From Bacteroidales bacterium (lineage in GTDB: Bacteria > Bacteroidota > Bacteroidia > Bacteroidales > UBA3824), in assembly GCA_017544805.1 (NCBI GenBank), contig JAFYDK010000122.1, forward strand, positions 1,764 through 65,763: a DNA stretch of 64,000 bases, given 5' to 3'. The translations under genes and the position numbers were made by a program. The notes under the pieces were generated by a model. The model ran no database searches. It was not told where the DNA came from and worked only from the letters and a program-made list of their open reading frames with translations. Shown in pieces: positions 23,651 through 57,554 of the stretch; positions within the stretch are counted from its first letter, which is position 1; every line of letters begins with the position of its first letter.

Positions 23651-23812
23651 TTTATAATTTTATTTTTAAACTAATTTTCGGCAAATATATTTATTTCTTT
23701 GCAAATTTTACTAATTTTGTATGTAATTTTTATGTAAAAATATTTGTATAATTGTATATTTATACAGTTAGCGGTTCAAAAAAAGTATAATTTTGCAAAA
23801 GAAGGAATCTGT

Positions 23813-24637: not shown

Positions 24638-24641
24638 TTCA

Positions 24642-27437: not shown

Positions 27438-27621
27438 AATTGGTTATCGTTTTTTTTTAGGTTTTTTCAAATTATTTTTGGGGCAAGGTAATAATAATAT
27501 TTTATTAAAAAAAATTAATTTCTCTTTTTTATTAAAATAAAATTGTGGTACGCTGTTTGCTTTTTAGGGTATAGGAAAACAGTAAATTTTAATAACTCTA
27601 TGGTCTTGATTAACTAAAAAA

Positions 27622-28095: not shown

Positions 28096-28221
28096 AAAAA
28101 GAAGTGAAAAAAATGAATTTGGGAATTATTTTATTAAAAAGGAAAAAACTACTCAAGGAAAAAAACTAATTTAAAGGACAACTAACGGATTTTAAGAACC
28201 TTTTTTAACAAGGGAAAACAA

Positions 28222-35134: not shown

Positions 35135-35581
35135 TTATCTTTTAATAACACTCAAAATTGCAACTGCGCACGTTGTTTTAGGGCTCAGAGGCATGATGTG
35201 AACCCAATAAACATCGGTTTTGGGACAGAAAAACGTAAATTTGAAATTTCTGGTCGTCGTTGCTAAAATATTATTGTTGTTGTCATAAAGCGATAACATT
35301 GAGTTTACCGCAAGTCCTGTGGCTAAAGATGAATTTCCCTCTTCAAGGTATTGTGTGTCGGAGGGGTTGCAAAGTTGTAAAGTGTACATATATCCTTTGT
35401 TGAGGATAACTTTGTGTTTTTGAATTTTCCCTGACGAGAATTTTGTGTTGAATTCTTTTAAGAAAATAACGCCGGAGTTTTGCAAAGCACACTCGTACAC
35501 AAATCTTTGTTTGCATTGAGCATTAACGCAAAGACTTGATAATGTGATAAATATAACGATAACTAATCTTAGTAACTTCAT
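35135..35581 (-). CDS. Hypothetical secreted protein
   Basis: The ATG at 35581 gives the signal peptide MKLLRLVIVIFITLSSLCVNAQ. The longer ORF-track start (35692) would overlap the divergent radical SAM gene. Confidence 0.5.
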   Translation of the reverse strand: MKLLRLVIVIFITLSSLCVNAQCKQRFVYECALQNSGVIFLKEFNTKFSSGKIQKHKVILNKGYMYTLQLCNPSDTQYLEEGNSSLATGLAVNSMLSLYDNNNNILATTTRNFKFTFFCPKTDVYWVHIMPLSPKTTCAVAILSVIKR

Positions 35582-35671
35582 AATTGAAAATAAATTTTTA
35601 CGTTTCAAAGGTAATATATTTTTTTGATTTAAACAAAAAGCAATCCAAAAACAATTTACAATAAAAAAATT

Positions 35672-36445
35672 ATGTCTACGTTTTTGTTTCACGATTTGGT
35701 TTATGGACCTATAAAATCCAGACGGCTTGGAAATTCTCTTGGTATCAATTTGTTACCGACTGAAAAAAAATATTGTAATTTCAACTGCATCTATTGCGAA
35801 TGTGGAGCTAATATTCCGGGGCATGTCGGACTTTTGCCCGGGCGTGCGGAAATTGCCGCTGCTTTAGAAAAAAAACTTATCCACCTCAAAGAAAAAAACG
35901 AAAAAGTTGATTCAATAACTTTTGCGGGAAACGGTGAACCTACAATTCACCCCGATTTTCACGAAGTAATTTCTGATACTGTTAATTTAAGAAATAAGTT
36001 TTCGCCTGATGCAAAAATTTCCGTTTTGAGCAATGCAACAAGGATTGTAAACGAAAATACCGTTGCAACTCTCAAGATGATAGATAATTGCATTTTGAAA
36101 ATTGACTCTGGCATCGAAGAAACTGCCAAAGCCATCGACCGTCCCGTCGGAAATTATTCTTTGAAACATCAAGTTGAACTTCTTAAACAATTTGACGGAA
36201 ATTTTGTACTTCAAACTATGTTTTTGTCGGGCGAGGTTTCGGGCAAAAAAATTGACAATACGACCACTGAAGAAGTTTCAGCATGGTTGAAAATTGTTGA
36301 AGAATTGCGTCCGAAAAAAGTTATGATTTACACCATTGCACGCGATACACCGGAGAAAAATCTCCAAAAAGCCTCAAAAGAAACTCTTGATAATATTCAA
36401 AAAAAGGTTCAGAATTTAGAAATTGAAATTTCGGTTTCGTATTAG
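35672..36445 (+). CDS. Radical SAM protein (COG0731-like, function unknown)
   Basis: YGPIKSRRLGNSLGINLLP...CNFNCIYCECG N-terminus (CxxxCxxC) and a GNGEPT motif. Confidence 0.8.
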   Translation: MSTFLFHDLVYGPIKSRRLGNSLGINLLPTEKKYCNFNCIYCECGANIPGHVGLLPGRAEIAAALEKKLIHLKEKNEKVDSITFAGNGEPTIHPDFHEVISDTVNLRNKFSPDAKISVLSNATRIVNENTVATLKMIDNCILKIDSGIEETAKAIDRPVGNYSLKHQVELLKQFDGNFVLQTMFLSGEVSGKKIDNTTTEEVSAWLKIVEELRPKKVMIYTIARDTPEKNLQKASKETLDNIQKKVQNLEIEISVSY

Positions 36446-37550: not shown

Positions 37551-39002
37551 ATGTCAGAAAATAGTGATAAAAATCTAATAGAGCAACTCGAAAATAGCGG
37601 TTACGAAGCAGGTTTTGTAACTGATATTGAGATGGAAACGTTTGAAAAAGGGCTTAACGAAAATATTATCAGAAAACTTTCAGCCCTTAGAAACGAACCT
37701 AAAGAGATGCTTGAATTCCGTTTGAAGGCATACGAAAAATGGAAAACGATGAAAATGCCTCATTGGGCGCATCTTGATTTTGAAGAGCCTGATTATCAGG
37801 ATTTAATATATTATGCAGCACCGAAGAAAAAAGCAAAACTCAACAGTTTGGACGAGGTGGATCCCGAACTTTTGAAAACTTACGAAAAACTTGGTATTCC
37901 GCTTTCAGAGCAGAAGGAACTTGCAGGCGTGGCTGTTGATGCCGTTTTCGATTCGGAATCGGTGCATACCACGATGAAAAATCAATTAGCGGAAAAAGGC
38001 ATAATTTTTTGTCCGATAAGCGAGGCGATAAGGGATTATCCCGACCTTATAAAAAAATATCTCGGTAGTGTTGTCCCTCTCGGTGATAATTTTTATGCGG
38101 CTTTGAACTCTGCTGTTTTTACTGACGGCTCGTTTGTTTATATTCCCAAAGGTGTGCGTTGCCCTGTGGAACTTTCAACATATTTCCGTATCAACGCCGC
38201 AAAAACGGGTCAGTTTGAACGCACTTTAATCGTTGCCGATGAAGGTAGTTACGTTTCGTATCTTGAGGGTTGTACCGCTCCGATGAGGGACGAGAGTCAG
38301 CTTCATGCCGCTGTTGTGGAATTGGTTGCGCTTGATAATGCCGAAATAAAATATTCAACGGTTCAGAATTGGTATCCGGGCGATAAAGATGGCAAAGGCG
38401 GAATTTATAATTTCGTTACAAAACGCGGAATGTGCAAAGGTGATAATTCCAAAATTTCATGGACTCAGGTCGAAACAGGTTCGGCTATCACGTGGAAATA
38501 TCCTTCAACAATTCTTAAAGGAAATTATTCAACTTCAGAGTTTTACTCTGTGGCTGTGACAAATAATTATCAACAGGCTGATACCGGAACCAAAATGATT
38601 CATATCGGCAAAAACACCAAATCAACGATTATCAGCAAAGGTATTTCGTTGGGTAAAAGTCAAAATTCGTACCGCGGACTTGTGAAAGTTGCAAAGGGAG
38701 CGCAAAACGCCCGCAATTATTCGCAATGCGACAGCCTTTTAATCGGGGACAAATGCGGTGCGCATACGTTTCCTTTCATTGAGTGTTCCAACAAAACGGC
38801 AACGCTCGAACACGAGGCAACGACTTCTAAAATTTCTGACGAACAACTTTTTTATTGCCGTCAAAGAGGAATTTCAACGGAAAATGCAGTAAGTCTTATT
38901 GTTAATGGTTTTGCAAAGGACGTTTTGAACAAACTTCCGATGGAATTTGCCGTTGAGGCGAGAAAATTACTTTCAATAACTTTGGAGGGTTCGGTAGGAT
39001 AA
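37551..39002 (+). CDS. sufB: Fe-S cluster assembly protein SufB
   Basis: 483 aa. ...[34 protein letters not shown]... and ...[22 protein letters not shown]... are diagnostic SufB blocks. Confidence 0.95.
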
Positions 39003-39037
39003 CAAAAAATATACTAATTTTTAAATGACAAGAAAAA

Positions 39038-40255
39038 GTGGACATACAGCAAATTAGAAACGATTTTCCGATTCTCGGACAAAAAATATACGGGCATCCG
39101 TTGGTTTATTTGGACAATGCCGCTACTACGCAAAAACCTCAGTGTGTGTTGGATTCTATTATGAAATTTTACACATTATATAATAGTAATATTCACCGGG
39201 GAGTGCATTATTTAAGCGAAAAAGCCACCGAAATTTACGAAAACGCGCGTCTTAAAGTCAAGGAGTTTATTAATGCAAAATCCCGTACCGAAATTGTTTT
39301 TACAAAGGGAAGTACTGAGGCTATCAACACTTTGGCTTCATCGTTTTCGCAGCGTTTTATTAATCCCGGTGACGAATTGATTATTAGCGAGATGGAACAT
39401 CATTCGGATATTGTTCCTTGGCAGTTGAACGCTCAAAACAAGGGAGCTGTTATTAAGGTTTTGCCTTTTGATGATAGGGGAGAACTTTTGATTGATAAAT
39501 TGGAAAATCTTATCACAAACAAAACCAAAATCATTTGTGTAACCTACGCTTCCAATACTTTAGGAACGGTAAATGACGTTGAAAAAATCATTAAAATTGC
39601 TCATTCGCATAATATTCCCGTTTTGGTGGACGCTGCACAAGCTATTCAGCATTTAAAGATTGACGTTCAAAAACTTGACTGTGATTTTCTTGCGCTTTCG
39701 GGACATAAAATTTATGCTGAAACCGGTATTGGTATTCTTTACGGAAAAGAAAAATATTTAGAGGAACTTCCTCCGTATCAAGGCGGTGGTGATATGATAA
39801 AAAATGTCAGTTTTGCCAAAACGACATACGCCGAATTGCCTTTGAAATTTGAAGCGGGAACCTCCAATTTCGTTGGGGCAGGTTCACTTCATACGGCTTT
39901 GGATTATGTTGATAAACTTGGTTTGGAAAATATTGCCGCTCACGAGGCGGAACTTTTGAAATATGCGACTCAAAAAGTGGAAGCTTTGGGCGGTATTACA
40001 ATTTACGGTAAGGCTGACAACAAAGTTTCAGTACTTTCATTTAACATTGACGGAGCGCATCATTACGATACGGGTATGATTTTAGACAAACTCGGAATTG
40101 CAGTCCGCACGGGTACGCATTGCACCGAACCTATAATGCAGCATTTTGGCATCACGGGTACAGTTCGTGCAAGTTTTGCTCTTTACAACACTTTCGAGGA
40201 GGTTGACGCTTTGGTAGATGGTATTAAAAGAGCTCAAAAAATGTTAGTAGGATAA
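39038..40255 (+). CDS. sufS: Cysteine desulfurase SufS (group II)
   Basis: GTG start. IRNDFPIL...YLDNAATTQKP, SGHKIY (PLP lysine) and ...RTGTHCTEP (active-site Cys) motifs. Confidence 0.95.
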   Translation: MDIQQIRNDFPILGQKIYGHPLVYLDNAATTQKPQCVLDSIMKFYTLYNSNIHRGVHYLSEKATEIYENARLKVKEFINAKSRTEIVFTKGSTEAINTLASSFSQRFINPGDELIISEMEHHSDIVPWQLNAQNKGAVIKVLPFDDRGELLIDKLENLITNKTKIICVTYASNTLGTVNDVEKIIKIAHSHNIPVLVDAAQAIQHLKIDVQKLDCDFLALSGHKIYAETGIGILYGKEKYLEELPPYQGGGDMIKNVSFAKTTYAELPLKFEAGTSNFVGAGSLHTALDYVDKLGLENIAAHEAELLKYATQKVEALGGITIYGKADNKVSVLSFNIDGAHHYDTGMILDKLGIAVRTGTHCTEPIMQHFGITGTVRASFALYNTFEEVDALVDGIKRAQKMLVG

Positions 40256-40284
40256 AAAATTATAGTTGCTCGATAATCTCGGTT

Positions 40285-40320
40285 TCAACAGAGGAGCGCA
40301 TTAAGTACCTTTTCTGTTGA
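40285..40320 (+). terminator. Hairpin downstream of sufS (candidate terminator)
   Basis: Stem tcaacaga (40285-40292) / tctgttga (40313-40320) followed by a T-rich tract. Confidence 0.45.
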
Positions 40321-40541
40321 GCCGATTTCTTTTTCTGACATTGAAAAATCTAATTTTTTAAATTTTCCCGTTTTTGTTTGAATTTTTTTTTAAGGCTTGG
40401 GCGTTGGAGAAAATGACAAAAAAAATTAGTTCAACGCTTTTTATAAAAATTAACCATAAGAAAAAACAATAAATTTTACTATTGAAAAAAATATGTTTAA
40501 TTTTGCACATTAAAAATCAGCAATTAAGATAACACAATACA

Positions 40542-40970
40542 ATGTTGACTATCAACGAAATACAAGATGAAATCATAGAGGAATTTTCTGTCTATGACGA
40601 GTGGCTTGATAAGTATGAATATCTAATCGAACTTGGAAATTCACTCGAGATAATTGACGAAAGCCAAAAAACACCCGATAATATTATTCAAGGCTGTCAG
40701 TCAAGGGTTTGGCTTGATGCTAAAATGGATTCTGACGGAACTTTGAATTTTAAAGCCGATAGCGACGCAATAATCACTAAAGGTATTATCGCATTGTTAA
40801 TCAGGGTTTTCAATCATCAAAAGCCGCAAGATATTATTGATGCACAATTATATTTTATTGACGAGATAGGTTTGTCAGCAAATCTTTCGCCCACACGTGC
40901 TAACGGTCTTTTGGCTATGATAAAACAAATAAGGTATTACGCATTGGCATTCAACGCATTAAACAAATAA
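40542..40970 (+). CDS. sufE: SufE-like sulfur acceptor protein
   Basis: 142 aa. The ...IQGCQSRVWL... motif contains the conserved acceptor Cys. A -7 box taattttg lies at 40498-40505. Confidence 0.85.
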   Translation: MLTINEIQDEIIEEFSVYDEWLDKYEYLIELGNSLEIIDESQKTPDNIIQGCQSRVWLDAKMDSDGTLNFKADSDAIITKGIIALLIRVFNHQKPQDIIDAQLYFIDEIGLSANLSPTRANGLLAMIKQIRYYALAFNALNK

Positions 40971-45695: not shown

Positions 45696-46940
45696 TTATA
45701 TTTCTACGCTTTTTTCAAAATCTTCCCAAAATCTCGGATAAGATTTTTTTACGGACTGAGCATCGGTTATGACGATTTGTTTGTCAGCATTTAGAGTGGC
45801 AACGGCTAACGAAAATGCCATTCTGTGGTCATTTCTTGACGAAACTGTTACTCCGCCCGAAATTTTTCCACCTTTTATCTTCATAAAATCGCCCTCCAAA
45901 TCTACTTGAATACCTATTTTAAAAAATTCTTCTTTAATTGCCAAAGCTCTGTCCGACTCTTTATGCGCCAATCTCGAAACGCCTTTTATAATGCTTTCTC
46001 CGCTGCAATTTGCTGCAAGTGAAGCTAATACGGGAAACAAATCAGGACAATCAGTCGCATCAAAATTATAAGCCCTTAAATCCTTTTTGCTTACTTTTAT
46101 TTCGTCATTGCTGATAACAATTTCTGCGCCGACCTGTTCTAAAACTTTCATAACAGCTCTGTCGGCTTGTAACGAATTAGGATTAAGACCTTTAACAACG
46201 GCTTTTCCTGCTATTGCACCTGCAATTAAATGTGCTGCGGCACTCGACCAATCGCCTTCCACTTGATACTCAGTGGCTGTGTATTTTTGTTTGCCTTTGA
46301 TTCTAAACTCCTTAAAATCAATATTTTGAATTTGTCCGCCGAATTTTTCAATTATATCCAATGTCATTTGAACGTATGGCACGCTTTTCAAATTTTCAAC
46401 TTTCAGAACAGAATCTTTTTCGGCTTTTGGCAGTGCTGTTAAAAGTCCCGTTAAAAATTGAGAGGATTGACTGCCGTCTATTTCAGCAAAACCGCCTTTT
46501 AGTCCCGAATGAATCGTTATCGGCACAAAACCGTTTGAAAGCGAGATTTTTGCGCCTAAATCTGCCATAGGTTTTTCCATCATTGACATCGGACGTTTTA
46601 GAAGCGAACCTTCGCCTTGAATCGTTAAACCGCCATCCAAAAGCGCACAAACCGGCGTAAAAAGTCTTAATCCCAAACCTGCCTCGCCGACAGAAATTTG
46701 TTTTGCTTTAAGTGGATTTTTTGGCGTGATTTTCACCAAAGAGTCTTCCCTTACAACTTTGCAGCCCAAGGTTTCGGCAATTTTCAAGGCCGAGGAAGAA
46801 TCGTTGCTGAAATCAGGATTTTTCAAAACGGTTTCTCCTTGTGAAAGAATTGCAAGAGCCACTGCTCTTTGCATATAGCTTTTTGACGAAGGAATCATCA
46901 AAGAAGCATTATATTTTGAAGGTTTTACTAATTTGTCCAT
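45696..46940 (-). CDS. aroA: 3-phosphoshikimate 1-carboxyvinyltransferase (EPSP synthase)
   Basis: ...LMIPSSKSYMQRAVALAIL..., ...DHRMAFSLAVA... and a 414-aa length. An alternative ATG at 46898 would remove the 32-nt overlap with the upstream gene. Confidence 0.95.
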   Translation of the reverse strand: MDKLVKPSKYNASLMIPSSKSYMQRAVALAILSQGETVLKNPDFSNDSSSALKIAETLGCKVVREDSLVKITPKNPLKAKQISVGEAGLGLRLFTPVCALLDGGLTIQGEGSLLKRPMSMMEKPMADLGAKISLSNGFVPITIHSGLKGGFAEIDGSQSSQFLTGLLTALPKAEKDSVLKVENLKSVPYVQMTLDIIEKFGGQIQNIDFKEFRIKGKQKYTATEYQVEGDWSSAAAHLIAGAIAGKAVVKGLNPNSLQADRAVMKVLEQVGAEIVISNDEIKVSKKDLRAYNFDATDCPDLFPVLASLAANCSGESIIKGVSRLAHKESDRALAIKEEFFKIGIQVDLEGDFMKIKGGKISGGVTVSSRNDHRMAFSLAVATLNADKQIVITDAQSVKKSYPRFWEDFEKSVEI

Positions 46941-48201
46941 AAATTTTTTCTGCTATTTTCTCTCTGTTAAGATTTTCTACATTGACAACTGCGTATGCTG
47001 CATCAGCATAAAAAGGCACGCGTGAGAGGAACATTTCGCGGGCTTTTTCCACAGGGTTTTCGCATTGCAAAAGCGGACGGTTGCTAATATCAAGACCGTC
47101 CAAACAATATTCTACGGGAGCGTAAAGCCAAAGATTCAAAAAGTTTTCGCGTAAGATTTTGCGGTTTTCTTCATTTTTGACAGTACCGCCGCCGCACGAG
47201 AGAATTATATTTTTCTCTTTTGATAATGTTTTCAAAAATTCGGTTTCGATTTTGCGGAAATAATCTTCGCCTTTTTTTGAAAAAATTTCTGAAATTTTCA
47301 TTCCCTCGTTTTTTTCAATTTCGTCGTCAGAATCTATGAATTTATAACCTGTAAGTTTTGCGAGTTCTTTTCCTGAGGTCGTTTTGCCGACTCCCATAAA
47401 ACCTGTCAAAGCAATTCTGCCTTGAAAATCGAATTTATAGTTTTTCAAAGCTTCATACATTTTTTCGGGAGCAATTTTTCCGCCCGTAAAATTTTCGTAA
47501 GAGGGAACTGCTTGATTTACAAGCCAATTTTTGCCGCTCAAAAATTTAAAGCCGATTTTCTTTGCCGGAGTTTCAAAAATCGAATCCTTATAATTAGCGT
47601 CCAAAACGACATGGTCTTTTGTTAATAATTCTGGCTCAAAAACTTTTACGCCCGAGGGCAAAGCCTGAACGATAACAGCAAAATCGTTAATAAAATTTTC
47701 TATGTTTTTTAATTCTTTGATGTTGATGTTAAAGCGCTCTTTCAACGCCTCTAACGCATTGATATTACGAGCGGTAACAGTAACTTCAAGACCGAGATTT
47801 TTTCCTGCGATAATTACCGCGGGAGTTGCACCGCCAGAGCCGATTACAAGCATTTTTTTCTGCTGTAGAAATTCAGGATAGAGTTTGAGAGTAAGTTCAA
47901 CTCCTTTTATATCGGTGTTGTCGCCGCAAAGTTTATTGTCCGAAGAATAAAAAATACAATTAACCGCCTCGGCTTTTTTAGCATTTTCCGAAAGACAATC
48001 AAGGTATTTTATAACATCTTTTTTGAAAGGTGCGGTAACATTAAGACCTTTAAAATCAAGCTGTTTGAAAGTTTTTATCGCTTCCTCCGCTGTTTCGGCG
48101 CAGAGCCTGAAATAATTGAAACTGTCAGAAACCGACATTAAAACAGGGCTTAACGAATGTAAAACGGGGTTTCCCGTTACCGCAAAGAGTTTTGTGTTCA
48201 T
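46909..48201 (-). CDS. Bifunctional shikimate dehydrogenase (AroE) / shikimate kinase (AroK) fusion
   Basis: The N-terminal half has FAVTGNPVLHSLSPVLM and GSGGATPAV (AroE). The C-terminal roughly 170 aa have the P-loop LTGFMGVGKTTSG and ...FIDSDDEIE... (AroK). Confidence 0.85.
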   Translation of the reverse strand: MNTKLFAVTGNPVLHSLSPVLMSVSDSFNYFRLCAETAEEAIKTFKQLDFKGLNVTAPFKKDVIKYLDCLSENAKKAEAVNCIFYSSDNKLCGDNTDIKGVELTLKLYPEFLQQKKMLVIGSGGATPAVIIAGKNLGLEVTVTARNINALEALKERFNINIKELKNIENFINDFAVIVQALPSGVKVFEPELLTKDHVVLDANYKDSIFETPAKKIGFKFLSGKNWLVNQAVPSYENFTGGKIAPEKMYEALKNYKFDFQGRIALTGFMGVGKTTSGKELAKLTGYKFIDSDDEIEKNEGMKISEIFSKKGEDYFRKIETEFLKTLSKEKNIILSCGGGTVKNEENRKILRENFLNLWLYAPVEYCLDGLDISNRPLLQCENPVEKAREMFLSRVPFYADAAYAVVNVENLNREKIAEKIYGQISKTFKI

Positions 48202-48275: not shown

Positions 48276-48704
48276 TTATTTCACTATCTGGTAAACACCC
48301 TCTTGATAATCATCTTTATCTACAACGGGTTCGGTTTCGATAAACTGAAAATTAAGGTTAAGAATTGAAGAATATTTTTGTCCTATTTTTAGCATTTCAT
48401 GGTCTTCTTTCTCATAATACCATTTTACGAATATTTGGTTTTTGTTTTTGCACTCGTTGATTGCGGTAATAAGTTTTGCAATTTGTTTTGCGCTTGAGGT
48501 ATTAAAATATGAGAGACTAAACTCAATATCGGTTTTGGGTTGCGGGTTTTCAAAATAATCCTTTATCCATTGAATCAGCGGTTTATAAAAACTTAAAGCA
48601 TCTTCAGCCCAAGAAGTCCCGCTAAAACTTATGAACCCTTTTACACCGTTCATTATTACCTCCGGCGTATCTTCCGTTGCACTGATATTGAGATTTTCAA
48701 CCAT
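48276..48704 (-). CDS. DUF1987 / SiaC-like regulatory phosphoprotein
   Basis: ...TEDTPEVIM...FSGTSWAEDALSFYKPLIQWIKDY...LSYFNTSSAKQI...VKWYYEKED... follows the SiaC/DUF1987 pattern. The gene starts 3 nt after the upstream gene. Confidence 0.7.
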   Translation of the reverse strand: MVENLNISATEDTPEVIMNGVKGFISFSGTSWAEDALSFYKPLIQWIKDYFENPQPKTDIEFSLSYFNTSSAKQIAKLITAINECKNKNQIFVKWYYEKEDHEMLKIGQKYSSILNLNFQFIETEPVVDKDDYQEGVYQIVK

Positions 48705-48707
48705 TTT

Positions 48708-49844
48708 TTATCTGTTAATACATGAAGTCATTTTGAATAATGAATATTCACCTTCGCCTTCTATAAATTCGTATTCTAATGGATTGCGGCTTTTATTTCT
48801 GATTTCGATTAAACCTAATCCCGCCTCTTTGCTTGAATTGATTCTAAAATCGAAAAGTCTTTCGTTATAGAAGTCTTCCCTTTGTTGTTCGTTGAGTGAG
48901 TTAATATGGTCGAGTTTTGCTTTCAAATCATCGACTTTTGATTTTTTTATGTAGTTAATTGTAGTAAGACAATATTTGTCATCTTTTAATGAAATATAAA
49001 AAATTCCTTGACAACCTTCTATGCCAGAAACATTTACATTACCGTGATGAATAATATTTTGCAGCATTTCGACCATAATGCTAATGATTTTTTTCTTGGA
49101 GTTCAGAGTTTCCTTCATTCTGTTTTTCATGATAGAAATCAGACTAAGGAGGCTGTCTTGGTCGAAAACGGCACTGTAAATCAATAATATTGAGTTTTTC
49201 ATGATAAAACTGTGGAGTTTTACCATATAGTTTACGGAATAAACCGATTCGGGTGATTGCTCCGGGGCTTGTTCCAAGGTCGTACCATTGATATTGCTGT
49301 GAAGATAAAAGAACGAAATTTCATCGTTTACTTTTTCGAGTTGATACGAGAGTTTGTTGCCTGATTTTCTTACCATTTCGATAAGACCGAGGCCTGCACC
49401 GCCTTTGCTTGAGAGTTGTCCGTTGCCTAAAACTTCTCTGTAAAATTTATCAAGTTCTTCCGAATCAAGACTATTGATTTTGTCAAGTTTTGATTTCAAA
49501 TCACTGACTTTGCCGTTTTCTATAATATTACCCGTGGTGATATAATACCATTTGTTTTCTTTCTGAATAGAAAACATTGAGTCGGTGATTTCGTTGGAAT
49601 CCTCCGCAGCATCACCATGTCGGGAAATGTTTTGAATACTTTCCACCATGATATGGAAAATACGTTTTTTTATTTTTCCCGAAATTTTGTCCCTGTCGAT
49701 ATTCTTTTCGGCAAGTGATAAAATATGCTGTTGCAGATTTTGAGTAAATTCACCGCGATAGATATAATTGAGGTCTTCTTTTTGAGTAGACTTCATCAAT
49801 TCTATCACAAAATCTTTGTTTGCTATATTGTTATCTGAACCCAT
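48708..49844 (-). CDS. Tandem-duplicated SiaB-like GHKL-type protein kinase (two modules of about 185 aa in one polypeptide)
   Basis: The two halves align to each other: IMVESIQNISRHG vs IMVEMLQNIIHHG; SDLKSKLDKINSLDSEELDKFY vs DDLKAKLDHINSLNEQQREDFY; GGAGLGLIEMVRKSGN vs EAGLGLIEIRNKSRN. The N-box and G-box resemble anti-sigma/SiaB-type kinases. Confidence 0.6.
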   Translation of the reverse strand: MGSDNNIANKDFVIELMKSTQKEDLNYIYRGEFTQNLQQHILSLAEKNIDRDKISGKIKKRIFHIMVESIQNISRHGDAAEDSNEITDSMFSIQKENKWYYITTGNIIENGKVSDLKSKLDKINSLDSEELDKFYREVLGNGQLSSKGGAGLGLIEMVRKSGNKLSYQLEKVNDEISFFYLHSNINGTTLEQAPEQSPESVYSVNYMVKLHSFIMKNSILLIYSAVFDQDSLLSLISIMKNRMKETLNSKKKIISIMVEMLQNIIHHGNVNVSGIEGCQGIFYISLKDDKYCLTTINYIKKSKVDDLKAKLDHINSLNEQQREDFYNERLFDFRINSSKEAGLGLIEIRNKSRNPLEYEFIEGEGEYSLFKMTSCINR

Positions 49845-49909
49845 TGAGTAATATTTTGAAAAAAAACATTAATTTTATTTCGGCAAAAATCAGTGCCAGA
49901 AGTCGCCTT

Positions 49910-49917
49910 CAAAATTA
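49910..49917 (-). promoter_or_regulatory. -7 promoter box (TAnnTTTG on the minus strand) for the SiaB/SiaC-like pair
   Basis: The plus strand reads caaaatta, which is taattttg on the minus strand. It lies about 66 nt upstream of the ATG at 49844. Confidence 0.35.
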
Positions 49918-49991
49918 ATAAATATATTGCAAATTTCTTGCCTTGTTTCAAATTTTTTTTTATTTTTTTTTATTCCTAAAAAAAAACGGCA

Positions 49992-50024
49992 AAGGGCAGA
50001 TTCTTTTTCAAGAAAACTGCCCTT
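49992..50024. terminator. Hairpin terminator downstream of rpoD (T-runs on both strands)
   Basis: Stem aagggcag (49992-49999) / ctgccctt (50017-50024). An A-run precedes it and a T-run follows it. Confidence 0.6.
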
Positions 50025-50144
50025 CCTTTTTTTATAAAAATTCTTTTTTTTATTCAGTCGGCGGGAGTTTTTTTTCACCCGCTAAAAAATTTATTCAAGT
50101 AAATTAACCTTTTTCATTTCATTGGATTAGAAAGAAAATCTTCA

Positions 50145-51005
50145 TTAACCGAGATAGGCTTTCAAAAGATTGCTTCTTGAGGTGTTTCTTAATCTGCGGA
50201 TTGCTTTTTCGCGGATTTGACGCACCCTCTCACGAGTCAGGCCGTACTGATCACCGATTTCCTCGAGGCTGAGCTCCTGACAACCGATTCCAAACGAAAG
50301 TTTCAAGATAGAACGTTCTCTTTCTGTCAAGGTTGAAAATGCTCTTTCAATCTCCTTGCTCAAAGACTCGTCCATCAAATTTCCGTCAGCAACCTGTGAA
50401 TCAGGGTTTTCCAAGACATCAAGCAGGCTGTTTTCTTCGCCTTGTACAAAAGGAGCGTCCACACTTACGTGCTTGCCTGAAACGCGCATCGTATCAACAA
50501 CTTTTTCCTGCGGCAATTCCAAAATACCGCTCAATTCCTCCGGTGAGGGTTTGCGTTGATGCTTTTGTTCAAAATCAGACACCGCCTTGTTGTACTTGCT
50601 CAAAGAACTTACCTGATTGAGCGGCAACCGTACAATTCTTGACTGTTCGTTAATCGCCTGCATAATGGATTGACGAATCCACCAAACGGCATACGAAATA
50701 AATTTGAAACCGCGGGTTTCGTCAAATTTTTCAGCAGCCTTAATCAAACCTAAATTGCCTTCGTTGATAAGGTCAGGCAAGCTAAGTCCTTGATTTTGGT
50801 ACTGTTTTGCAACGGAAACAACGAATCTCAAGTTTGCTCTCGTAAGTTTTTCGATAGCAGACTGATCGCCTTTGCGTATACGCTGAGCGAGTTCTACTTC
50901 TTCTTCTACTGAGATTAACTCGTATTTGCCGATTTCTTGCAAATACTTGTCAAGAGATGCACTTTCTCTGTTGGTAATTGACTTTGTAATTTTTAACTGT
51001 CTCAT
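50145..51005 (-). CDS. rpoD: Primary RNA polymerase sigma factor (Bacteroidota sigma-A)
   Basis: 286 aa. Motifs include ...[37 protein letters not shown]..., ...[10 protein letters not shown]... and ...[18 protein letters not shown]. Confidence 0.95.
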
Positions 51006-52144: not shown

Positions 52145-54922
52145 TTATTTTTTCACCAACTTTTTAACTGCTTGATTTTTTTCGGTTTTAACGATTACGA
52201 AATAAATGCCGCTTGTTAAATCCGAAATGTCAAATTTATTTTGATTGGTCTCTAATGTTTTTACCTTTTGACCCGAAATATTTAAAATCGAAATATCTTG
52301 AATTTTCTCCTTGGTATCTATCGTAATAAATTCAGAGCAAGGGTTGGGATAAACGGTTAAATTGATTTCGGATTTTGGCATGATGTCAGCAGTGGCTGTT
52401 TCTACGTCATCTTCATTATCGGAGAAAATAACGGTTTGACCCGGAGTCATCGGATAATTAACCGTTTGGTTGCTCACTTCTAATTTTTCTCCCGAAATAA
52501 TCTCGTACCAAGTGCCGCCTTTAGGGAATGCAATTCTTGCGTTCGTGTTGTCGGTGTTGAAATTAACAGCGAAAATCAAATTAGCTTTTTCGGATTTTCT
52601 GTAAATAATTTTCATTAAACTTGAAGCGTCAATTTTCGCCGTGCCATTTGTCATAGCCTCGTTGGTTCTGCGCAATTTGCAGAGTTTTGAATAAAAATCA
52701 TAGAGGCTTTTACGGTTTTCGTTATCCAAGTAGTTTTCAGGATAAGGTTTTTTGTCGGTGCGGGCACCATCGTCTTCTTTTCCCGTTGTCGGATTGTAAT
52801 TGATTGAATAATCATAACCTAATTCGCCGAATTGCCAAATCATTTTAGGACCGGGCATTGAAAGTAAAACCGCTGCCGCACCTTTCATACGCTCAAGAGC
52901 CGTTTTTAAATCTTTAACGTCATATTTTGCCGTTGTTTGACCGTATCTCAAACATTTGAACATCATGCGTTCTTCGTCGTGGCTTTCTGCGTAAGAAATC
53001 AAACCGGGCTTATCAAAATCGTGTTGCTTATAATTCAAAGAATTTAAATCGCAGCCTGAGGAGTAACCCATGGTTGCTTGACAAAACGCATAATTCAAAT
53101 TTCCCCAAAGCATAATGCCGTAATTTGCTAAAACTTTTTCTTCCGAATTGTCAGTTAAATGTTCGCAAATCATGTATGCTTTTGGATTGATTTCTTGCAT
53201 TTTATCATAAATTCTTTTCAAAATATTTATTCTTGACTCATCGTATGCAGAGCATTGTGCATCGTTTGTTGCAGGCGTGTTCGTAAAACCTTTGGTAAAG
53301 TCAAAACGGATACCGTCAATTTTGTACTGTGTCATCCAATAATTCATAACGGAATCTACAAGAGCTTGAGTTTCAGGTGCTTCATGGTTGAAGTCATATC
53401 CCCAAGAATAGACGGTATTGGGAGAATTAACATTAAACCAAGGACTCTCTGAAGTCGTTTTTTCTCCGTCAAAATACAATTTAACGAAAGGGGAGGAGCC
53501 GAAAGCGTGGTTTAGAACAACGTCTTGAATGACAGCTATTCCGCGTTTATGACATTCGTCAATAAATTCTTTGTAATCGTTTTCAGTGCCGTAAGCCTTG
53601 TCCACAGCGAAATAATACGACGGATTATAACCCCAAGAATTGTTGCCTTCAAATTCTGAAAACGGCATTAATTCTATTGCGTTAATTCCTAAATTTTCAA
53701 GATAATCGAGATTTTCTTTTGCGGCTTTAACAGTGCCTTCTTTGGTAAAATCACGGATTAACAATTCATAAATGATGAGGTTTTTTGATTCCGGGGCATC
53801 GAAATTTTTAACTTGCCAATTATAGGCCTTTTTATCAAGTTGAAACGTTGAAACTATGCCGTAAGTTTTGTCTTGCGGATAAGTTAAATTACCGTCATAA
53901 ATATCTTTCGTTAAATATTTGTCGTTGTCGGGATCAAGTATTTTTTCGGTGTAAGGATCTGCTATTCTGATAGTTTCATCAACGATGTATTGATAACCGT
54001 ATTCCTTGTCTTTGTCCAAACCGCTGATGGTGCAGAAAAAATATTTTCCGTCTTCAGAGACTGTCATGGCAGAATTTTGGTTGATTTGCCAATTAGAAAA
54101 ATCTCCTATTAAATAAGCGTTTTTTTTGCCGGGGGCAAACAAAACGAAAGTCGCCGAATTGTCAGAAATTTTGTTAACACCGCGTCTTAAATTTTGGGGC
54201 ATTTCGCCCGTTTTAGCATTTTCTCTTACCACGTATGAAATTGATTTTTCTGCGGTTTCTTGGTTGTTGTTTTTAGCGGTTATTTTTATGATATGACAGC
54301 CGGAAGTTTCAGCGTTGATTTTTATTGAATTACCGCTTTTTGAAAGTTTTTCATCGTCGAGAAAGTAAGAAATTTCTGCTTCTGACGAAGTTGAAACTTC
54401 AACCTCAATTTCTTCGCCGCCGTTTACGAAAATAACTGATTCTGAAGGCTTTTTAACGGTCAGATTAAACTCGTTAGCGGCATAAACTTCTTGAAAAATA
54501 TTTGTTCCGCCGGTGTTTTTGCCTTCTTTTTTGCCGTCAGCACTACGGAAAACGAAAGCCAATTTTTTGACTTTTGCTGCTTGTAAGTCGTCTAAGCCGT
54601 AAAAATCTTTGATATTGCCGATATTTAGCGTGTAAGTGTTTGTTGAAATGCGGCTTAATTTGCATTTTTCGACGTTTTTGTCCCAATCGGCGACAACTTT
54701 TTCCCAATCGCTGTCAGTGCCGCCTTCCAAAATAACGCCTGTGTGGGCATAAATATCGCCGGTGTATCCGCTAAGTCCGCGACTTCCTTGGTCAGCGTGG
54801 AAAGTTATTACAACATTTTGGGATTTAATGTTCGGAAATTCTGGCGAACATTCTATAACTTGACCGCATGAAAAACTTATCGCAGTCAATAAAATCAGTA
54901 ATGTATAAAACAGTCTTTTCAT
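52145..54922 (-). CDS. Secreted GH13 alpha-glucan hydrolase (pullulanase/amylase-like) with N-terminal accessory domains and a T9SS C-terminal sorting domain
   Basis: GH13 regions ...VIQDVVLNHA..., ...IDGIRFDFTKGF..., ...MICEHL... and ...YAESHDEERM. The C-terminus ...LTVYPNPCSEFITI...SGIYFVIVKTEKNQAVKKLVKK is a type A T9SS CTD. Confidence 0.9.
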   Translation of the reverse strand: MKRLFYTLLILLTAISFSCGQVIECSPEFPNIKSQNVVITFHADQGSRGLSGYTGDIYAHTGVILEGGTDSDWEKVVADWDKNVEKCKLSRISTNTYTLNIGNIKDFYGLDDLQAAKVKKLAFVFRSADGKKEGKNTGGTNIFQEVYAANEFNLTVKKPSESVIFVNGGEEIEVEVSTSSEAEISYFLDDEKLSKSGNSIKINAETSGCHIIKITAKNNNQETAEKSISYVVRENAKTGEMPQNLRRGVNKISDNSATFVLFAPGKKNAYLIGDFSNWQINQNSAMTVSEDGKYFFCTISGLDKDKEYGYQYIVDETIRIADPYTEKILDPDNDKYLTKDIYDGNLTYPQDKTYGIVSTFQLDKKAYNWQVKNFDAPESKNLIIYELLIRDFTKEGTVKAAKENLDYLENLGINAIELMPFSEFEGNNSWGYNPSYYFAVDKAYGTENDYKEFIDECHKRGIAVIQDVVLNHAFGSSPFVKLYFDGEKTTSESPWFNVNSPNTVYSWGYDFNHEAPETQALVDSVMNYWMTQYKIDGIRFDFTKGFTNTPATNDAQCSAYDESRINILKRIYDKMQEINPKAYMICEHLTDNSEEKVLANYGIMLWGNLNYAFCQATMGYSSGCDLNSLNYKQHDFDKPGLISYAESHDEERMMFKCLRYGQTTAKYDVKDLKTALERMKGAAAVLLSMPGPKMIWQFGELGYDYSINYNPTTGKEDDGARTDKKPYPENYLDNENRKSLYDFYSKLCKLRRTNEAMTNGTAKIDASSLMKIIYRKSEKANLIFAVNFNTDNTNARIAFPKGGTWYEIISGEKLEVSNQTVNYPMTPGQTVIFSDNEDDVETATADIMPKSEINLTVYPNPCSEFITIDTKEKIQDISILNISGQKVKTLETNQNKFDISDLTSGIYFVIVKTEKNQAVKKLVKK

Positions 54923-55047: not shown

Positions 55048-55061
55048 TGCAATCGTTTGCA
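55048..55061. promoter_or_regulatory. LacI-type operator candidate TGCAATCGTTTGCA (copy C)
   Basis: 35 bp centre-to-centre from copy B. It is the exact reverse complement of copy A at 3176-3189. Confidence 0.55.
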
Positions 55062-55149
55062 CAAGTTTTCTTTTAATTTCGTGCTGAAAATGCTTATTTT
55101 TATTTCAATATGTTTTAACATTGCACAAAATAATTATTTAAAAAAAGCG

Positions 55150-56406
55150 ATGAAAAAATTTTTATTATATTCGTTAGTTGCATTGTTTGCTTCATGCAGC
55201 GGCGGACAAGTTGAAAACAAGGAAGTTACAATTCCTCAAAGTAACATTTACGAGGTAAATATTCGTCAATACACTCAGGAAGGCACATTGAAGGCCTTTG
55301 AAGAACAACATTTGGAGCGACTAAAACAGCAAAATGTTGATATTCTATGGCTTATGCCTGTTTTCCCGATTAGTGAAGAAGGCAGAAAAGGCACTTTGGG
55401 CAGTTATTATGCCGTAAAAAATTACACCGAAATTAATCCTGAGTTTGGCACGTTGGAAGATTTAAAAAGTCTTGTCAATCACGCACACAACCTCAAAATG
55501 AAAGTCATTCTCGACTGGGTTGCCAATCACACGGGCAGGGACAACGTTTGGACAAAAGAGCATAAAGATTTTTACAATCTCGATTCGCTCGGCAATCCGG
55601 CTGTTCCCGAAGGCACAGATTGGAATGATGTTGCCGACCTTAATTACGACAATCCTCAAATGCGTAAGGCGATGATTGACGCCATGAAATTTTGGCTCAA
55701 AAATGCTGACATAGATGGTTTTAGGTGCGATGTTGCAGGCATGGTTCCGACAGATTTTTGGGTAGAATGTCGCAAAGAATTAGAAACTATTAAAAAGCCG
55801 ATTTTTATGCTCGCCGAGGACGACAATCCCGAAATTCACAAGGCTTTTGACGCTTCTTACAATTGGAAATGTCATCATATCCTCAACGGCATTGCGCAAG
55901 GCAAAAATACAGCGCAAGACCTTGTGGCTCTGTATGATACGTTGCAGCAAAAATTCCCCAAAAATGCAATCCTGATGAATTTTACGTCCAATCACGACGA
56001 AAATTCTTGGAGCAAATCCGAATACGACCGTATGGGCGATTACGTAAAGCAAATGGCTGCATTGACATATTTTTTGCCCGGAATGCCGCTTTGTTATTCA
56101 GGTCAAGAGGCTGCTAACAAAAAAGCGTTGGAATTTTTTGAAAAGGACGTTATTGATTTTTCTAATTTGCCGTTGAAAGATTTTTATGCCGAACTCAACA
56201 ATATAAAACATTCACATTCAGCATTATGGAACAACGATGTTAAGTTTTTGAGTAGCAACGACAATGTTTTGGTCTTTGAACGTAAAAGCAACGACGAGAA
56301 AATAATTTGTGTTTTTAATTTCAACGCTGACGAAAAAGAAGTGGCGTTAGACGGCGGAAAAACGATTAAAGTAGAAGGCAAAGGTTACAAAACTTTGTTT
56401 GAATAA
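55150..56406 (+). CDS. GH13 alpha-amylase lipoprotein
   Basis: Lipobox LFASCSGG. GH13 regions ...VILDWVANHTG..., ...IDGFRCDVAGMV..., ...MLAEDD... and ...FTSNHDENS.... The ATG at 55150 is preferred over the ORF-track start at 55057. Confidence 0.9.
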   Translation: MKKFLLYSLVALFASCSGGQVENKEVTIPQSNIYEVNIRQYTQEGTLKAFEEQHLERLKQQNVDILWLMPVFPISEEGRKGTLGSYYAVKNYTEINPEFGTLEDLKSLVNHAHNLKMKVILDWVANHTGRDNVWTKEHKDFYNLDSLGNPAVPEGTDWNDVADLNYDNPQMRKAMIDAMKFWLKNADIDGFRCDVAGMVPTDFWVECRKELETIKKPIFMLAEDDNPEIHKAFDASYNWKCHHILNGIAQGKNTAQDLVALYDTLQQKFPKNAILMNFTSNHDENSWSKSEYDRMGDYVKQMAALTYFLPGMPLCYSGQEAANKKALEFFEKDVIDFSNLPLKDFYAELNNIKHSHSALWNNDVKFLSSNDNVLVFERKSNDEKIICVFNFNADEKEVALDGGKTIKVEGKGYKTLFE

Positions 56407-56513: not shown

Positions 56514-57554
56514 TTAATTATTAAAAATCAACCTGCGAAGTTCAGGGATTTGCTCGGTTGGGACTTTTAACGCTTCGACTGCTTTGTCGAAATCAAAGCC
56601 GCTCGAGATGAGATTTTTGATACTTTCAACGAGTTGTTCGGTGCGTCCTTGTTCGATGCCTTCTGCACGTCCTTGCTCAATACCTTCTGCACGACCTTGT
56701 TCAATACCTTCGGCACGTCCCTCTGCTCGACCTTTTGTCTCACCCTCTATGAAACCGATTTCTTTGCCTTCTCTTAATTTTGTTGCCAACTGTCCGTAAT
56801 AACTTATATAGTTGTGAAAACTTGAATCGTACTGCCATTGCTGTTCCCTTGTCATGTCGGAATACGATGCAAGTTTTTCCAACCGCATAAAAAGCGGACT
56901 ATCTTCTTTAAAGGCTAATTGTGTTTTCATTTTCGCCATATTTGATAAGTTATATATCCATTTGTCAATGACAGTTTTGCAGTCAGATTCTTTCATCTTC
57001 CTGTAAAGCGGCATTTGTATTTTCCAATATTGAAGCGTGTCAGAATCTTTGTAATGTTCTTTCGTTTCCATAAATTGGAAATGTGATAGTTTTTGCGGGT
57101 GTTCTTTATCAATAAAATTCATAAAGAAAACTCCGTAAATGTTTTTCATATTGTATTTCCACGGCTCTTTTTGAACTTCACCGTTTTCATCTACAAACTT
57201 TAAATATCCTTTACCTTGCTGCCGCGATGCCGCACGTGCAAGGTAAAGAACTATTCTGTCTGAGAAAAAGTCTTGCGAATCGTTTTGCATCTCTATGATA
57301 AACTCTTCGCCGGTATCAGTAACGCAATTTACATCGTAAACAACTCGTCGAATGTCTTTGTTTGCTTCATCGGCTTCGGCATCGGTGATTGTAACGCTTG
57401 CAATATGAACATCAGGGTTGTCTTTCTGTAACAAGTCGTTAAGAAAACCGCGTGTTATTTCTTCGTCCTTAAAAATCCGTTTAAAACCGAAATCTGTCGT
57501 CGGGTCGATATATTTCGGCGGCCAAATTATCGGTTCGTTAATCATTATATCCAT
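56514..57554 (-). CDS. Rpn-family recombination-promoting nuclease / PD-(D/E)XK putative transposase (second, inverted paralog)
   Basis: ...YIDPTTDFGFKRIFKDEE... N-terminus and a ...DVNCV...FIIEMQ... nuclease core. The C-terminal tail carries GRAEGIEQ repeats. Confidence 0.8.
   Translation of the reverse strand: MDIMINEPIIWPPKYIDPTTDFGFKRIFKDEEITRGFLNDLLQKDNPDVHIASVTITDAEADEANKDIRRVVYDVNCVTDTGEEFIIEMQNDSQDFFSDRIVLYLARAASRQQGKGYLKFVDENGEVQKEPWKYNMKNIYGVFFMNFIDKEHPQKLSHFQFMETKEHYKDSDTLQYWKIQMPLYRKMKESDCKTVIDKWIYNLSNMAKMKTQLAFKEDSPLFMRLEKLASYSDMTREQQWQYDSSFHNYISYYGQLATKLREGKEIGFIEGETKGRAEGRAEGIEQGRAEGIEQGRAEGIEQGRTEQLVESIKNLISSGFDFDKAVEALKVPTEQIPELRRLIFNN
56645..56731. repeat. Imperfect 24-bp tandem repeat (3 full units plus 1 partial) inside the Rpn-like gene
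   Basis: Units gtccttgttcgatgccttctgcac / gtccttgctcaataccttctgcac / gaccttgttcaataccttcggcac / gtccctctgctcgac encode (GRAEGIEQ)x3 on the minus strand. Confidence 0.8.

Follow-up and report, generated by a model that had tools for sequence, protein, structure and literature searches.

A fused SiaB-type kinase and a SiaC-like protein of Bacteroidales as candidate arms of a partner switch with a probable output other than c-di-GMP

SiaB/SiaC signaling has so far been known only from Pseudomonas, where it switches a diguanylate cyclase. Here we describe a gene pair encoding members of both protein families in a 64-kb stretch of DNA from a Bacteroidales bacterium (GCA_017544805.1, contig JAFYDK010000122.1), which is called the window below and always means the whole stretch at its full length. 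The pair lies on the minus strand and is composed of the gene of a tandem, two-domain SiaB-family kinase of 378 aa (48708-49844) and the gene of a SiaC-family phosphoprotein of 142 aa (48276-48704). The two genes are 3 nt apart and their junction reads TAA-AAA-ATG, in agreement with an earlier description of two closely spaced minus-strand open reading frames (ORFs) that was made from the DNA alone (the original prediction). We suggest that the two proteins act as kinase and substrate in a partner switch like SiaABC, with a phosphatase encoded in trans and an output other than SiaD, and we put the probability of this reading at roughly 0.6.

In the proposed mechanism, the tandem kinase would be a covalently fused pseudo-dimer of the SiaB-type GHKL fold that stands in for the SiaB homodimer. 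Its N-terminal half, which has a complete glycine loop, is the likely catalytic copy, and its anciently diverged C-terminal half would probably serve in binding, scaffolding, or regulation, with residual activity being possible. By analogy with Pseudomonas, the fused kinase would phosphorylate Thr69 of the SiaC-like protein, and this phosphorylation would block the contact of the protein with its target. A sensor phosphatase of the SpoIIE/PP2C type, encoded outside the 64-kb window, would reverse the modification, and the unphosphorylated SiaC-like protein would bind a non-cyclase target via its N-T-S/helix alpha-2 surface. Alternatively, at this last step, the unphosphorylated protein might titrate the kinase off a protein that the kinase sequesters.

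The fused kinase and the SiaC-like protein

The 378-aa protein matched the Pfam family DUF6272 (PF19788; E = 1.3e-68, 229.3 bits, cutoff 26.6) and the NCBIfam model of the SiaB family protein kinase (NF038262; 246.8 bits, cutoff 85), each over two stretches. It stayed below the cutoff of the SiaB equivalog NF038264, the biofilm regulation kinase (103.1 bits, cutoff 225), and judged by these profiles it is a member of the SiaB family and not an orthologue of Pseudomonas SiaB. The AlphaFold2 (AF2) model, built with 80 homologues, reached a predicted local distance difference test (pLDDT) score of 80.4 and a predicted template modeling (pTM) score of 0.82; in this model, the two halves have a matching order of helices and strands and are packed into one compact structure. 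The top Foldseek match of the model was SiaB (6kko_A; target template modeling (TM) score 0.85, E = 8e-9), followed by the anti-sigma kinases SpoIIAB (including 1l0o, with sigma F) and RsbW. Profiles and predicted fold both agree with the SiaB-like GHKL-type kinase that the original prediction had read from N-box- and G-box-like motifs.

The protein had also been described as an internal duplication, and this is borne out by the paired Pfam and NCBIfam stretches and by the alignment of its halves (aa 1-189 against aa 190-378), which are 36% identical over 184 columns (E = 1e-29). The N-terminal SiaB-like half (N-half; aa 1-195, 49260-49844) is the more conserved and more SiaB-like copy, and the C-terminal SiaB-like half (C-half; aa 196-378, 48711-49259) is the diverged one. 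Identity to SiaB of P. aeruginosa is 28% for the N-half (E = 1e-14) and 25% for the C-half (E = 7e-11), the column entropy across the family is 1.25 and 1.56, respectively, and the N-half is also nearer by distance to single-domain SiaB. A search against the sequences of the PDB matched the N-half to SiaB 6kko_A with an E value of 1.6e-9. In a tree that included both halves from each of 35 diverse members and was rooted with SiaB of P. aeruginosa as the outgroup, the N-halves formed one clade and the C-halves another. Since the N- and C-halves are each monophyletic, the duplication was a single, ancient event.

Both halves carry an N-box-like motif that aligns with IEMTQN of SiaB: MVESIQNISRHG in the N-half (aa 66-77, with E68 and N72; 49614-49649) and MVEMLQNIIHHG in the C-half (aa 257-268, with E259 and N263; 49041-49076). 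E68 and N72 are invariant in 80 sequences, as are E259, Q262, N263, and H267. The predicted catalytic residue of SiaB is E61 (PMC7647112), and the Glu of IEMTQN is taken here to be this residue, allowing a one-residue offset in chain numbering. The glycine loop is where the halves differ. That of the N-half, KGGAGLGLIE (G-box; aa 147-156, 49377-49406), aligns with SGAGLGLLD of SiaB, and its residues K147-I155 are invariant in 80 family members. The C-half has a degenerate loop, KEAGLGLIE (aa 339-347, 48804-48830), in which G342-L343-G344 alone is invariant; K339-E340 occupy the place of G148-G149, where P. aeruginosa SiaB has S-G. Compared with GGAGLG of the N-half, the first Gly is gone from KEAGLG, a change that is family-wide in a loop that is variable across the family. 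The original prediction had already pointed to the loss of one G-box glycine in the second copy, and the alignment of the halves to each other and to SiaB agrees with it, placing the full glycine loop in the N-half and the Glu/Asn pair in both. Over the whole chain, the invariant or nearly invariant residues of the N-half include V67-E68, Q71-N72, H76, T103-T104, N106, K147-GGAGLGLI-155, and R159-K-S-G-N-K-L165, and those kept in the C-half are E259, Q262-N263-I264, H267, N297, Y326, and G342-L343-G344.

The idea of the original prediction that the C-half may be a pseudokinase is a hypothesis. This half is without one loop glycine but retains the Glu and Asn that correspond to the predicted catalytic E61 and to the N-box of SiaB. 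SiaB has been reported to act as a dimer (PMC7278518), and the simplest structural reading of the tandem kinase is that of a covalent, asymmetric version of this dimer. Being a dimer that occurs naturally in one chain, with an ATP site that is conserved in one half and diverged in the other, it would offer a system for studying the division of labor within GHKL dimers.

The 142-aa protein matched the Pfam family SiaC (PF09345, formerly DUF1987) with an E value of 1.8e-33 (115.2 bits, cutoff 24.5) and the SiaC crystal chains of the PDB with E values of about 1e-10. It scored below the SiaC equivalog NF038265 (74.3 bits, cutoff 150) and, like the kinase, is by its profile scores a family member and not an orthologue, in this case of SiaC. 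Its AF2 model (pLDDT 85) was matched by Foldseek to apo-SiaC (6kkp, TM 0.90) and superposes on apo-, SiaB-bound, and SiaD-bound SiaC, the chains of 6kkp, 7e6g, and 6kko giving TM scores of 0.83-0.90. The fold is only distantly STAS-like (4qtp, E = 0.09). The DUF1987/SiaC pattern recognized in the original prediction is therefore confirmed at the levels of profile and fold, and with it both proteins of the pair pass the cutoffs of their families, SiaB/DUF6272 and SiaC/DUF1987.

The predicted phospho-acceptor of the SiaC-like protein is Thr69 (codon 48498-48500) within the motif Y-F-N-T-S-S (aa 66-71, 48492-48509). Thr69 aligns with T68 of SiaC, which lies within N67-T68-S69, and this supports the proposal in the original prediction that the motif is equivalent to that of the SiaC phosphothreonine. 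In the model, Thr69 is the first residue of the helix 69-88, and T68 likewise stands at a helix N-terminus in SiaC. T68 is the phosphosite toggled by SiaB and SiaA (PMC7647112), and N67, T68, and S69 form a patch that contacts SiaD (PMC8457831). Among 73 SiaC-like relatives, the acceptor position is occupied by T in 67 and by S in 6, and the motif Y-x-N-T-[AS]-S-x-K-Q is nearly invariant.

Two features set the SiaC-like protein of the window apart from many relatives. It has an acidic C-terminal tail of ~18 aa (48279-48335), which ends in a conserved EGVYxIxK (EGVYQIVK in the window, 48279-48302), contains residues of low pLDDT (128-137), and is limited to the 142-145 aa versions of the sub-clade of the window, being present in the related loci L001-L004, L085, and L086. 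The acidic-tail sub-clade corresponds exactly to the genomes in which the SpoIIE phosphatase gene described below is no longer adjacent; the SiaC-like proteins of L087 and L005 have 125 aa, and a phosphatase gene is adjacent there. The second feature is Ala33 (in S-W-A-E-D, 48600-48614, minus strand) at a position that is Pro in 71 of the 73 relatives and in P. aeruginosa SiaC (S-x-P-E).

Gene arrangements and phosphatases at related loci

The fused kinase belongs to a large family. When 5.8 billion proteins were searched, more than 2000 matches were obtained, and the best 120 of these were almost all 363-416 aa long, with identities down to 43%; three shorter ones appear to be truncated. Among these 120, every named match was from Bacteroidales, and some are labeled "SiaB family protein kinase" by NCBI. 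Homologues almost all from Bacteroidales, taken with Pfam matches in the window to the gliding protein GldB and a T9SS sorting tail, assign the organism to Bacteroidota. The proteins of the pair are already named in databases, and literature searches on DUF6272, on tandem SiaB proteins, and on SiaB/SiaC-type switches in Bacteroidota found nothing. In the GTDB contigs of one genome per species, at least 574 stretches encode a relative of the fused kinase; these come from Bacteroidales, Marinilabiliales/Salinivirgaceae, Draconibacterium, Ignavibacteria-like "Chlorobi", and Flavobacteriales, and several genomes have two or three paralogues. The fused-dimer pair is therefore widespread in Bacteroidales and related lineages of the Fibrobacteres-Chlorobi-Bacteroidetes (FCB) group, including rumen and gut organisms.

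For the comparison of gene arrangements, 80 related loci were fetched, and their ORFs were called and clustered; seven further loci (L081-L083 and L085-L088) were added. The SiaC-like gene lies directly 3' of the kinase gene in about 60 of the 80, and to judge from gene order the pair is an operon in almost all related loci. In about nine loci, the arrangement kinase-kinase-SiaC is found in one protein of roughly 505 aa (two DUF6272 and one SiaC by Pfam), and five loci linked to rpoD, htrA, and dapF (L018, L027, L030, L031, and L053) have two SiaC-like genes (134 and 124 aa) after one fused kinase. A word-based search with the SiaC-like protein gave only 20 matches, and an exhaustive profile search of 1.84 billion representatives was used instead, which returned 5790 SiaC-family clusters. 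Among the fusions in these clusters (P0141, P0142-P0153, P0183, P0190, P0243, and P0258), many are tandem SiaC-SiaC proteins of about 245-280 aa, and others are SiaB-SiaC (305-322 aa), SiaB-SiaCx3 (654 aa), HEAT-repeat-SiaCx2 (715 aa), double-zinc-ribbon-SiaC (233 aa), and one doubtful SLT-SiaC fusion. A Rosetta-stone search among the SiaC-family clusters found no enzymatic output domain fused to SiaC. That kinase units are repeatedly joined covalently to each other and to substrates, and substrates to each other, would fit an assembly of two kinase units with up to two substrates, as expected by analogy with SiaB2:SiaC2.

Such an assembly raises the possibility that both halves of the fused kinase are active and that it handles two SiaC-like molecules or two substrates in a 1:2 complex like SiaB2:SiaC2. 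This is supported by the invariant E..QN..H and GLG elements of both halves, by the five loci with two SiaC-like genes per fused kinase, and by the commonness of tandem SiaC-SiaC fusions. However, a single SiaC-like gene is present in the window and at most loci, and in the C-half Lys-Glu replaces the first two glycines of a loop that varies across the family. We consider two active halves unlikely, though worth keeping in mind.

Other arrangements were seen at single loci or in single clades. Two adjoining fused-kinase genes (379 and 366 aa) are present in L025 at about 9900-12300, where no SiaC gene was called. In L029 (9959-16048), and also in L036, L047, L048, and L050-L052, the kinase domains and SiaC form a single protein of ~440-515 aa. 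In this L029-type clade, the fused gene is regularly followed by the gene of a 620-670-aa protein, whose only Pfam match is a C-terminal Ion_trans_2 domain (K+ channel pore), and then by ppk1; upstream, genes of a MORN-caspase, a papain-like peptidase, and a SpoIIE protein of 1313 aa are frequent. In this clade, the Ion_trans_2 protein, which resembles a channel, is a candidate for the output.

Comparison of the neighborhoods across Bacteroidota for a conserved third partner pointed to a SpoIIE/PP2C phosphatase. The largest cluster of neighbors in the 80 loci was made up mainly of multidomain proteins that end in a SpoIIE domain (PP2C superfamily) and have TPR, PAS, GAF, or Reg_prop/Y_Y_Y input domains. 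A SpoIIE/PP2C gene was present within the fetched flank of 25 of the 80 loci; in 20 loci it lay at most 1.5 kb from the kinase gene, just beyond the SiaC gene and usually convergent, and up to three such genes stood in a row. When the count was limited to the 32 loci whose flanks reached 8 kb or more on each side, 12 had a nearby SpoIIE gene. If a genome of 3000 genes is taken to contain about ten SpoIIE genes, an assumed and not a measured number, one of them would by rough estimate be the immediate neighbor by chance in well under 1% of cases, and the linkage therefore looks real.

In the window, Pfam scans of the gene pair and 40 further ORFs found no PP2C/SpoIIE and no GGDEF/EAL/PilZ domain, and a six-frame search of the window with a SpoIIE hidden Markov model (HMM) built from the relatives gave nothing credible. 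A weak match at 12670-12822 (E = 0.0018) covered 51 residues antisense to the gene at 12505-13560 and was taken as noise. Within the clade of the window, the position of the gene varies. In L087 (GCA_024413595.1, about 69% identity), the order is rpoD, one gene, the kinase gene, the 125-aa SiaC-like gene, and the gene of a 1314-aa SpoIIE protein (Reg_prop/Y_Y_Y/GAF/SpoIIE), which follows the SiaC gene by 19 nt on the same strand. In L005 (63% identity), a 1323-aa SpoIIE protein is encoded two genes from the pair, and in L001 (79% identity) a TPR-SpoIIE protein is encoded 7 kb away; L085 (81%) and L086 (74%), like the window, have no SpoIIE gene within 10 kb. It would be most economical to assume that the phosphatase gene was relocated to another part of the genome and that the switch still has its "off" enzyme. 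The original prediction had called the pair an orphan without a phosphatase. This holds within the 64-kb window but not for the family, in which a SpoIIE gene accompanies the pair in the 25 loci mentioned above; relatives with such a gene include L087, L005, and L001 from the clade of the window. The word "orphan" therefore fits this locus but does not characterize the system as a whole.

An orphan or decaying remnant, in which the phosphatase has been lost and the SiaC-like protein is constitutively phosphorylated without any signaling, would be in agreement with the lack of a phosphatase gene in the 64 kb and with the fact that the SiaC-like protein of the window alone has Ala33. However, the ratio of nonsynonymous to synonymous substitution rates (dN/dS) between the window and L001 is 0.07 for the kinase gene and 0.16 for the SiaC-like gene, and the proportion of nonsynonymous differences (pN) is far below that of synonymous differences (pS) for both genes against L001, L085, L086, and L003, synonymous sites being saturated except against L001. 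Strong purifying selection acts on the two genes in genomes without an adjacent phosphatase gene. In addition, the catalytic-type and acceptor residues are all intact, the promoter region is conserved, and a near-identical copy exists in an independent assembly: the metagenome assembly GCA_024712465.1 has a contig with a 98%-identical SiaC-like protein in the identical gene order. We regard a remnant as very improbable.

Several points nevertheless weigh against the proposed switch. The 64-kb window contains no phosphatase gene, 20 of the 32 loci with flanks of 8 kb or more on each side likewise have none nearby, and some lineages may run without a dedicated phosphatase. The C-half may be active too, since the Glu/Asn pair is retained. 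Both proteins are below the equivalog cutoffs (103 against 225 and 74 against 150) and appear not to be orthologues, so the biochemistry proposed here is extrapolated from Pseudomonas, and the literature searches found no phosphorylation data for any member from Bacteroidota.

Output of the module and its relation to known systems

HMM and phmmer searches found no GGDEF domain in the six frames of the window or in the 1095 ORFs of the 80 loci, with a probe that recovered the positive control, E. coli DgcC, at E = 3e-34. GGDEF is also not listed in the Pfam annotation of the seven further loci. Bacteroidetes genomes have been described as lacking GGDEF proteins or having very few of them (PMC1183210, PMC7288161). 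Because of the lack of GGDEF genes at related loci and their scarcity in Bacteroidetes in the literature, a SiaD-type output seems unlikely, and the output is likely to be other than cyclic di-GMP (c-di-GMP). The original prediction, which had found neither PP2C nor GGDEF proteins in the 64 kb and had suggested that the output may differ from c-di-GMP control, is in accordance with the Pfam and six-frame searches and with the related loci.

It could also be supposed that the pair is part of a split Sia system, with c-di-GMP as its output and with the genes of a SiaA-like phosphatase and a SiaD-like GGDEF cyclase located at other sites of the genome. The phosphatase gene can be unlinked, as it is within the clade of the window, the N-T-S surface that contacts SiaD in Pseudomonas (PMC8457831) is conserved, and the DNA examined for this genome is the 64-kb window. 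However, at none of the related loci does a GGDEF gene lie within about 10 kb, the phylum is reported to be poor in GGDEF proteins, and the N-T-S patch is also the recognition site of the kinase and phosphatase, so that its conservation says nothing specific to SiaD. According to the original prediction, a SiaA/SiaD pair that always co-occurs would make this an ordinary split system; the phosphatase half of such a pair was found in relatives, and the cyclase half was not. We consider a split Sia system improbable.

Compared with SiaABCD from P. aeruginosa, the proposed switch has the same two protein families and folds, the same order of adjacent kinase and substrate genes, the acceptor Thr in an N-T-S motif at the start of helix alpha-2, and, in many relatives of the pair, a genetically linked phosphatase of the PP2C superfamily. 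It differs in having a single chain of two diverged SiaB domains, whereas SiaB is a homodimer, and in having both proteins below the NCBIfam equivalog cutoffs. The phosphatases of the relatives are of the SpoIIE type with TPR, PAS, GAF, or Reg_prop/Y_Y_Y inputs, in contrast to SiaA, a predicted membrane protein with a C-terminal PP2C-like domain, and here no GGDEF partner is nearby and the host phylum is largely without c-di-GMP cyclases. The pair is not a SiaABCD system: there is no SiaD in the window or at related loci and no SiaA in cis. Since cyclases are rare in the lineages with the fused kinase and none is linked to the module at the loci examined, the DUF1987 switch would be a general-purpose module with at least one other output. 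Bacteroidota would then have an unstudied layer of Ser/Thr partner switching with multiple sensor phosphatases.

The recurrent neighbors other than SpoIIE were htrA, dapF, gyrB, uvrB, ftsZ, a murC-like gene, ppk1, genes of an outer-membrane beta-barrel protein (OMP), a DEAD helicase, and MacB/FtsX, and CheR; they are mostly housekeeping and clade-specific and were rejected as partners. The position of rpoD is different. The gene encodes a primary sigma factor of 286 aa (Sigma70 r1.2/r2/r3/r4; 50145-51005, minus strand) and is a conserved neighbor so far linked to the module by position. It adjoins the pair or is one gene away in the window, L001, L003, L085, L086, L087, and L088, and rpoD-kinase-SiaC is the sole block kept while both flanks vary (in the window, L001, L003, L085, and L086, and with one inserted gene in L087). 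In a second clade, from Salinivirgaceae/Marinilabiliales, rpoD is one or two genes off on the opposite strand (rpoD<- htrA<- [dapF->] kinase->). These positions are suggestive of a functional link between rpoD and the module, not proof of it, and the recurring adjacency provides one concrete candidate for the output.

It is therefore conceivable that the output is anti-sigma-like, with the fused SiaB pseudo-dimer sequestering RpoD (or another protein) and releasing it on binding the unphosphorylated SiaC-like protein, in the manner of SpoIIAB and RsbW and of the action of Chlamydia RsbW on sigma-66. SpoIIAB binds one sigma per dimer, and an asymmetric fused dimer would suit binding of this type. 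SpoIIAB, in the complex with sigma F among others, and RsbW are the next structural matches after SiaB; rpoD is the only neighbor kept beside the pair across the clade of the window while the flanks change, and it is within two genes of the pair in a second clade of different arrangement. There is also a precedent, as the Rsb partner switch of Chlamydia acts on the primary sigma factor (PMC4552016). However, rpoD forms a transcription unit apart from the module, whose own promoter follows the rpoD terminator; the unrelated genes htrA, dapF, and gyrB are conserved alongside in the second clade, so that plain synteny explains much of the linkage; most paralogous loci are not near rpoD; and SiaB has not been reported as a sigma-factor binder. 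Since the synteny of rpoD in the second clade is shared with unrelated genes and the module has its own transcription signals, control of a sigma factor is kept as a minority reading, which we hold to be quite unlikely. Its extended form, in which the C-half would be specialized for target binding and TPR, PAS, or Y_Y_Y SpoIIE phosphatases would provide the inputs, is given just as small a chance. If anti-sigma control did apply, housekeeping transcription in Bacteroidales would be subject to a global throttle at the post-translational level, and the module would be the SiaC/DUF1987-based counterpart of the switch formed by RsbW and sigma-66 in Chlamydia.

The switch proposed here, with a trans-encoded phosphatase and a non-SiaD output, resembles in its logic the SpoIIE-SpoIIAA-SpoIIAB and RsbU-RsbV-RsbW systems of Firmicutes, which consist of a PP2C/SpoIIE phosphatase, a GHKL Ser/Thr kinase, and a small phosphorylatable antagonist. 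The linked phosphatases of the relatives match Pfam SpoIIE, and the structural proximity of SpoIIAB and RsbW was mentioned above. In contrast to these systems, the substrate of the window has the SiaC/DUF1987 fold, which is only distantly STAS-like, the kinase is fused in tandem, and the RpoD link is positional. The Rsb network of Chlamydia trachomatis is likewise a non-Firmicute partner switch, with the housekeeping sigma-66 as its proposed target, and the module studied here adjoins rpoD in two clades; however, that network uses classical RsbW and RsbV (STAS), and here the link to RpoD is only positional. The cyanobacterial regulators slr1658/slr1659 (NF047703/NF047705) show weak HMM similarity to both window proteins, which are far below the NCBIfam cutoffs (39 against 100 and 17 against 100). 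This similarity suggests a wider superfamily of kinase-like and SiaC-like pairs.

Transcription signals and other features of the window

The pair appears to have its own transcription signals. A candidate -7 promoter box, TAATTTTG (49910-49917, minus strand), fits TAnnTTTG, the -7 consensus of Bacteroidetes, and a TAnnTTTG box stands at a comparable position upstream of the kinase gene in L001, L085, and L002, which strengthens the earlier proposal of a promoter at this site. In the aligned upstream regions, a conserved 17-nt element, AAGGCAAGAAATTTGCA (49928-49944, minus strand), contains the inverted repeat GCAA-N5-TTGC and is identical in the window, L001, L085, and L002, despite only 76-81% identity among these four. 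Both the element and the TAnnTTTG box are kept in L002, where the upstream gene is not rpoD. The element could be an operator or part of the promoter. The window has one exact copy of it, and a role as a regulon motif was rejected, the matches with three mismatches being at chance level (5 observed, 6 expected).

Between rpoD and the module is the intrinsic terminator of rpoD, a hairpin plus U-run (49977-50026, minus strand). The hairpin was missed by a simple terminator scan, which had a loop limit of 8 nt, and was found by RNA folding at about 49988-50026 (z = -2.8); an analogous hairpin and T-run 3' of rpoD were seen on inspection of the aligned sequences of L001, L003, and L085. The insulation of the module from rpoD by a hairpin terminator, as stated in the original prediction, is consistent with this fold. 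The spacer between rpoD and the kinase gene is A-rich and 300 nt long. No Rfam family reached the threshold anywhere in the window, including this spacer, and a structured RNA there was therefore rejected. A 62-aa GTG ORF (49890-50078) spans the terminator and the A-rich spacer, is of low complexity and Lys-rich, and was treated as non-coding. A defense-system identity of the pair was also rejected, because no PADLOC model matched the kinase or the SiaC-like protein.

The neighbors of the pair are rpoD, miaA, an aroE-aroK fusion, and aroA, the last two downstream, and Pfam scans agree with the primary sigma factor and shikimate genes named in the original prediction. At 45696-48201 (minus strand), aroE-aroK encodes one 430-aa protein (shikimate dehydrogenase and shikimate kinase), and the gene shares a 32-nt overlap with the start of aroA.

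Three histidine kinases are clustered at 18220-31917: a GAF-HisKA-HATPase protein (18220-20226, minus strand), a hybrid kinase with a receiver domain (24642-27437, minus strand), and a 1231-aa HAMP kinase (28222-31917, plus strand). Among the ORFs scanned, no response regulator with an output domain was found. The ORFs at 23744-24637 (plus strand, 297 aa) and 35135-35692 (minus strand, 185 aa) had no Pfam match. The suf genes of Fe-S assembly are split into two groups 34 kb apart, sufD-like and sufC at 1380-3054 (minus strand) and sufB, sufS, and sufE at 37551-40970 (plus strand). Enzymes of family GH13 are encoded at 52145-54922 (with a tail of the type IX secretion system, T9SS), 55057-56406, and 59204-61063, and a GH65 enzyme at 3295-5559. 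Transposase-like genes of the PD-(D/E)XK_2 family are present at 398-1288 (plus strand) and 56514-57554 (minus strand), the latter inside the starch/maltodextrin gene group formed by these GH13 and GH65 genes. The Pfam matches of the window ORFs also include the gliding protein GldB and the T9SS sorting tail.

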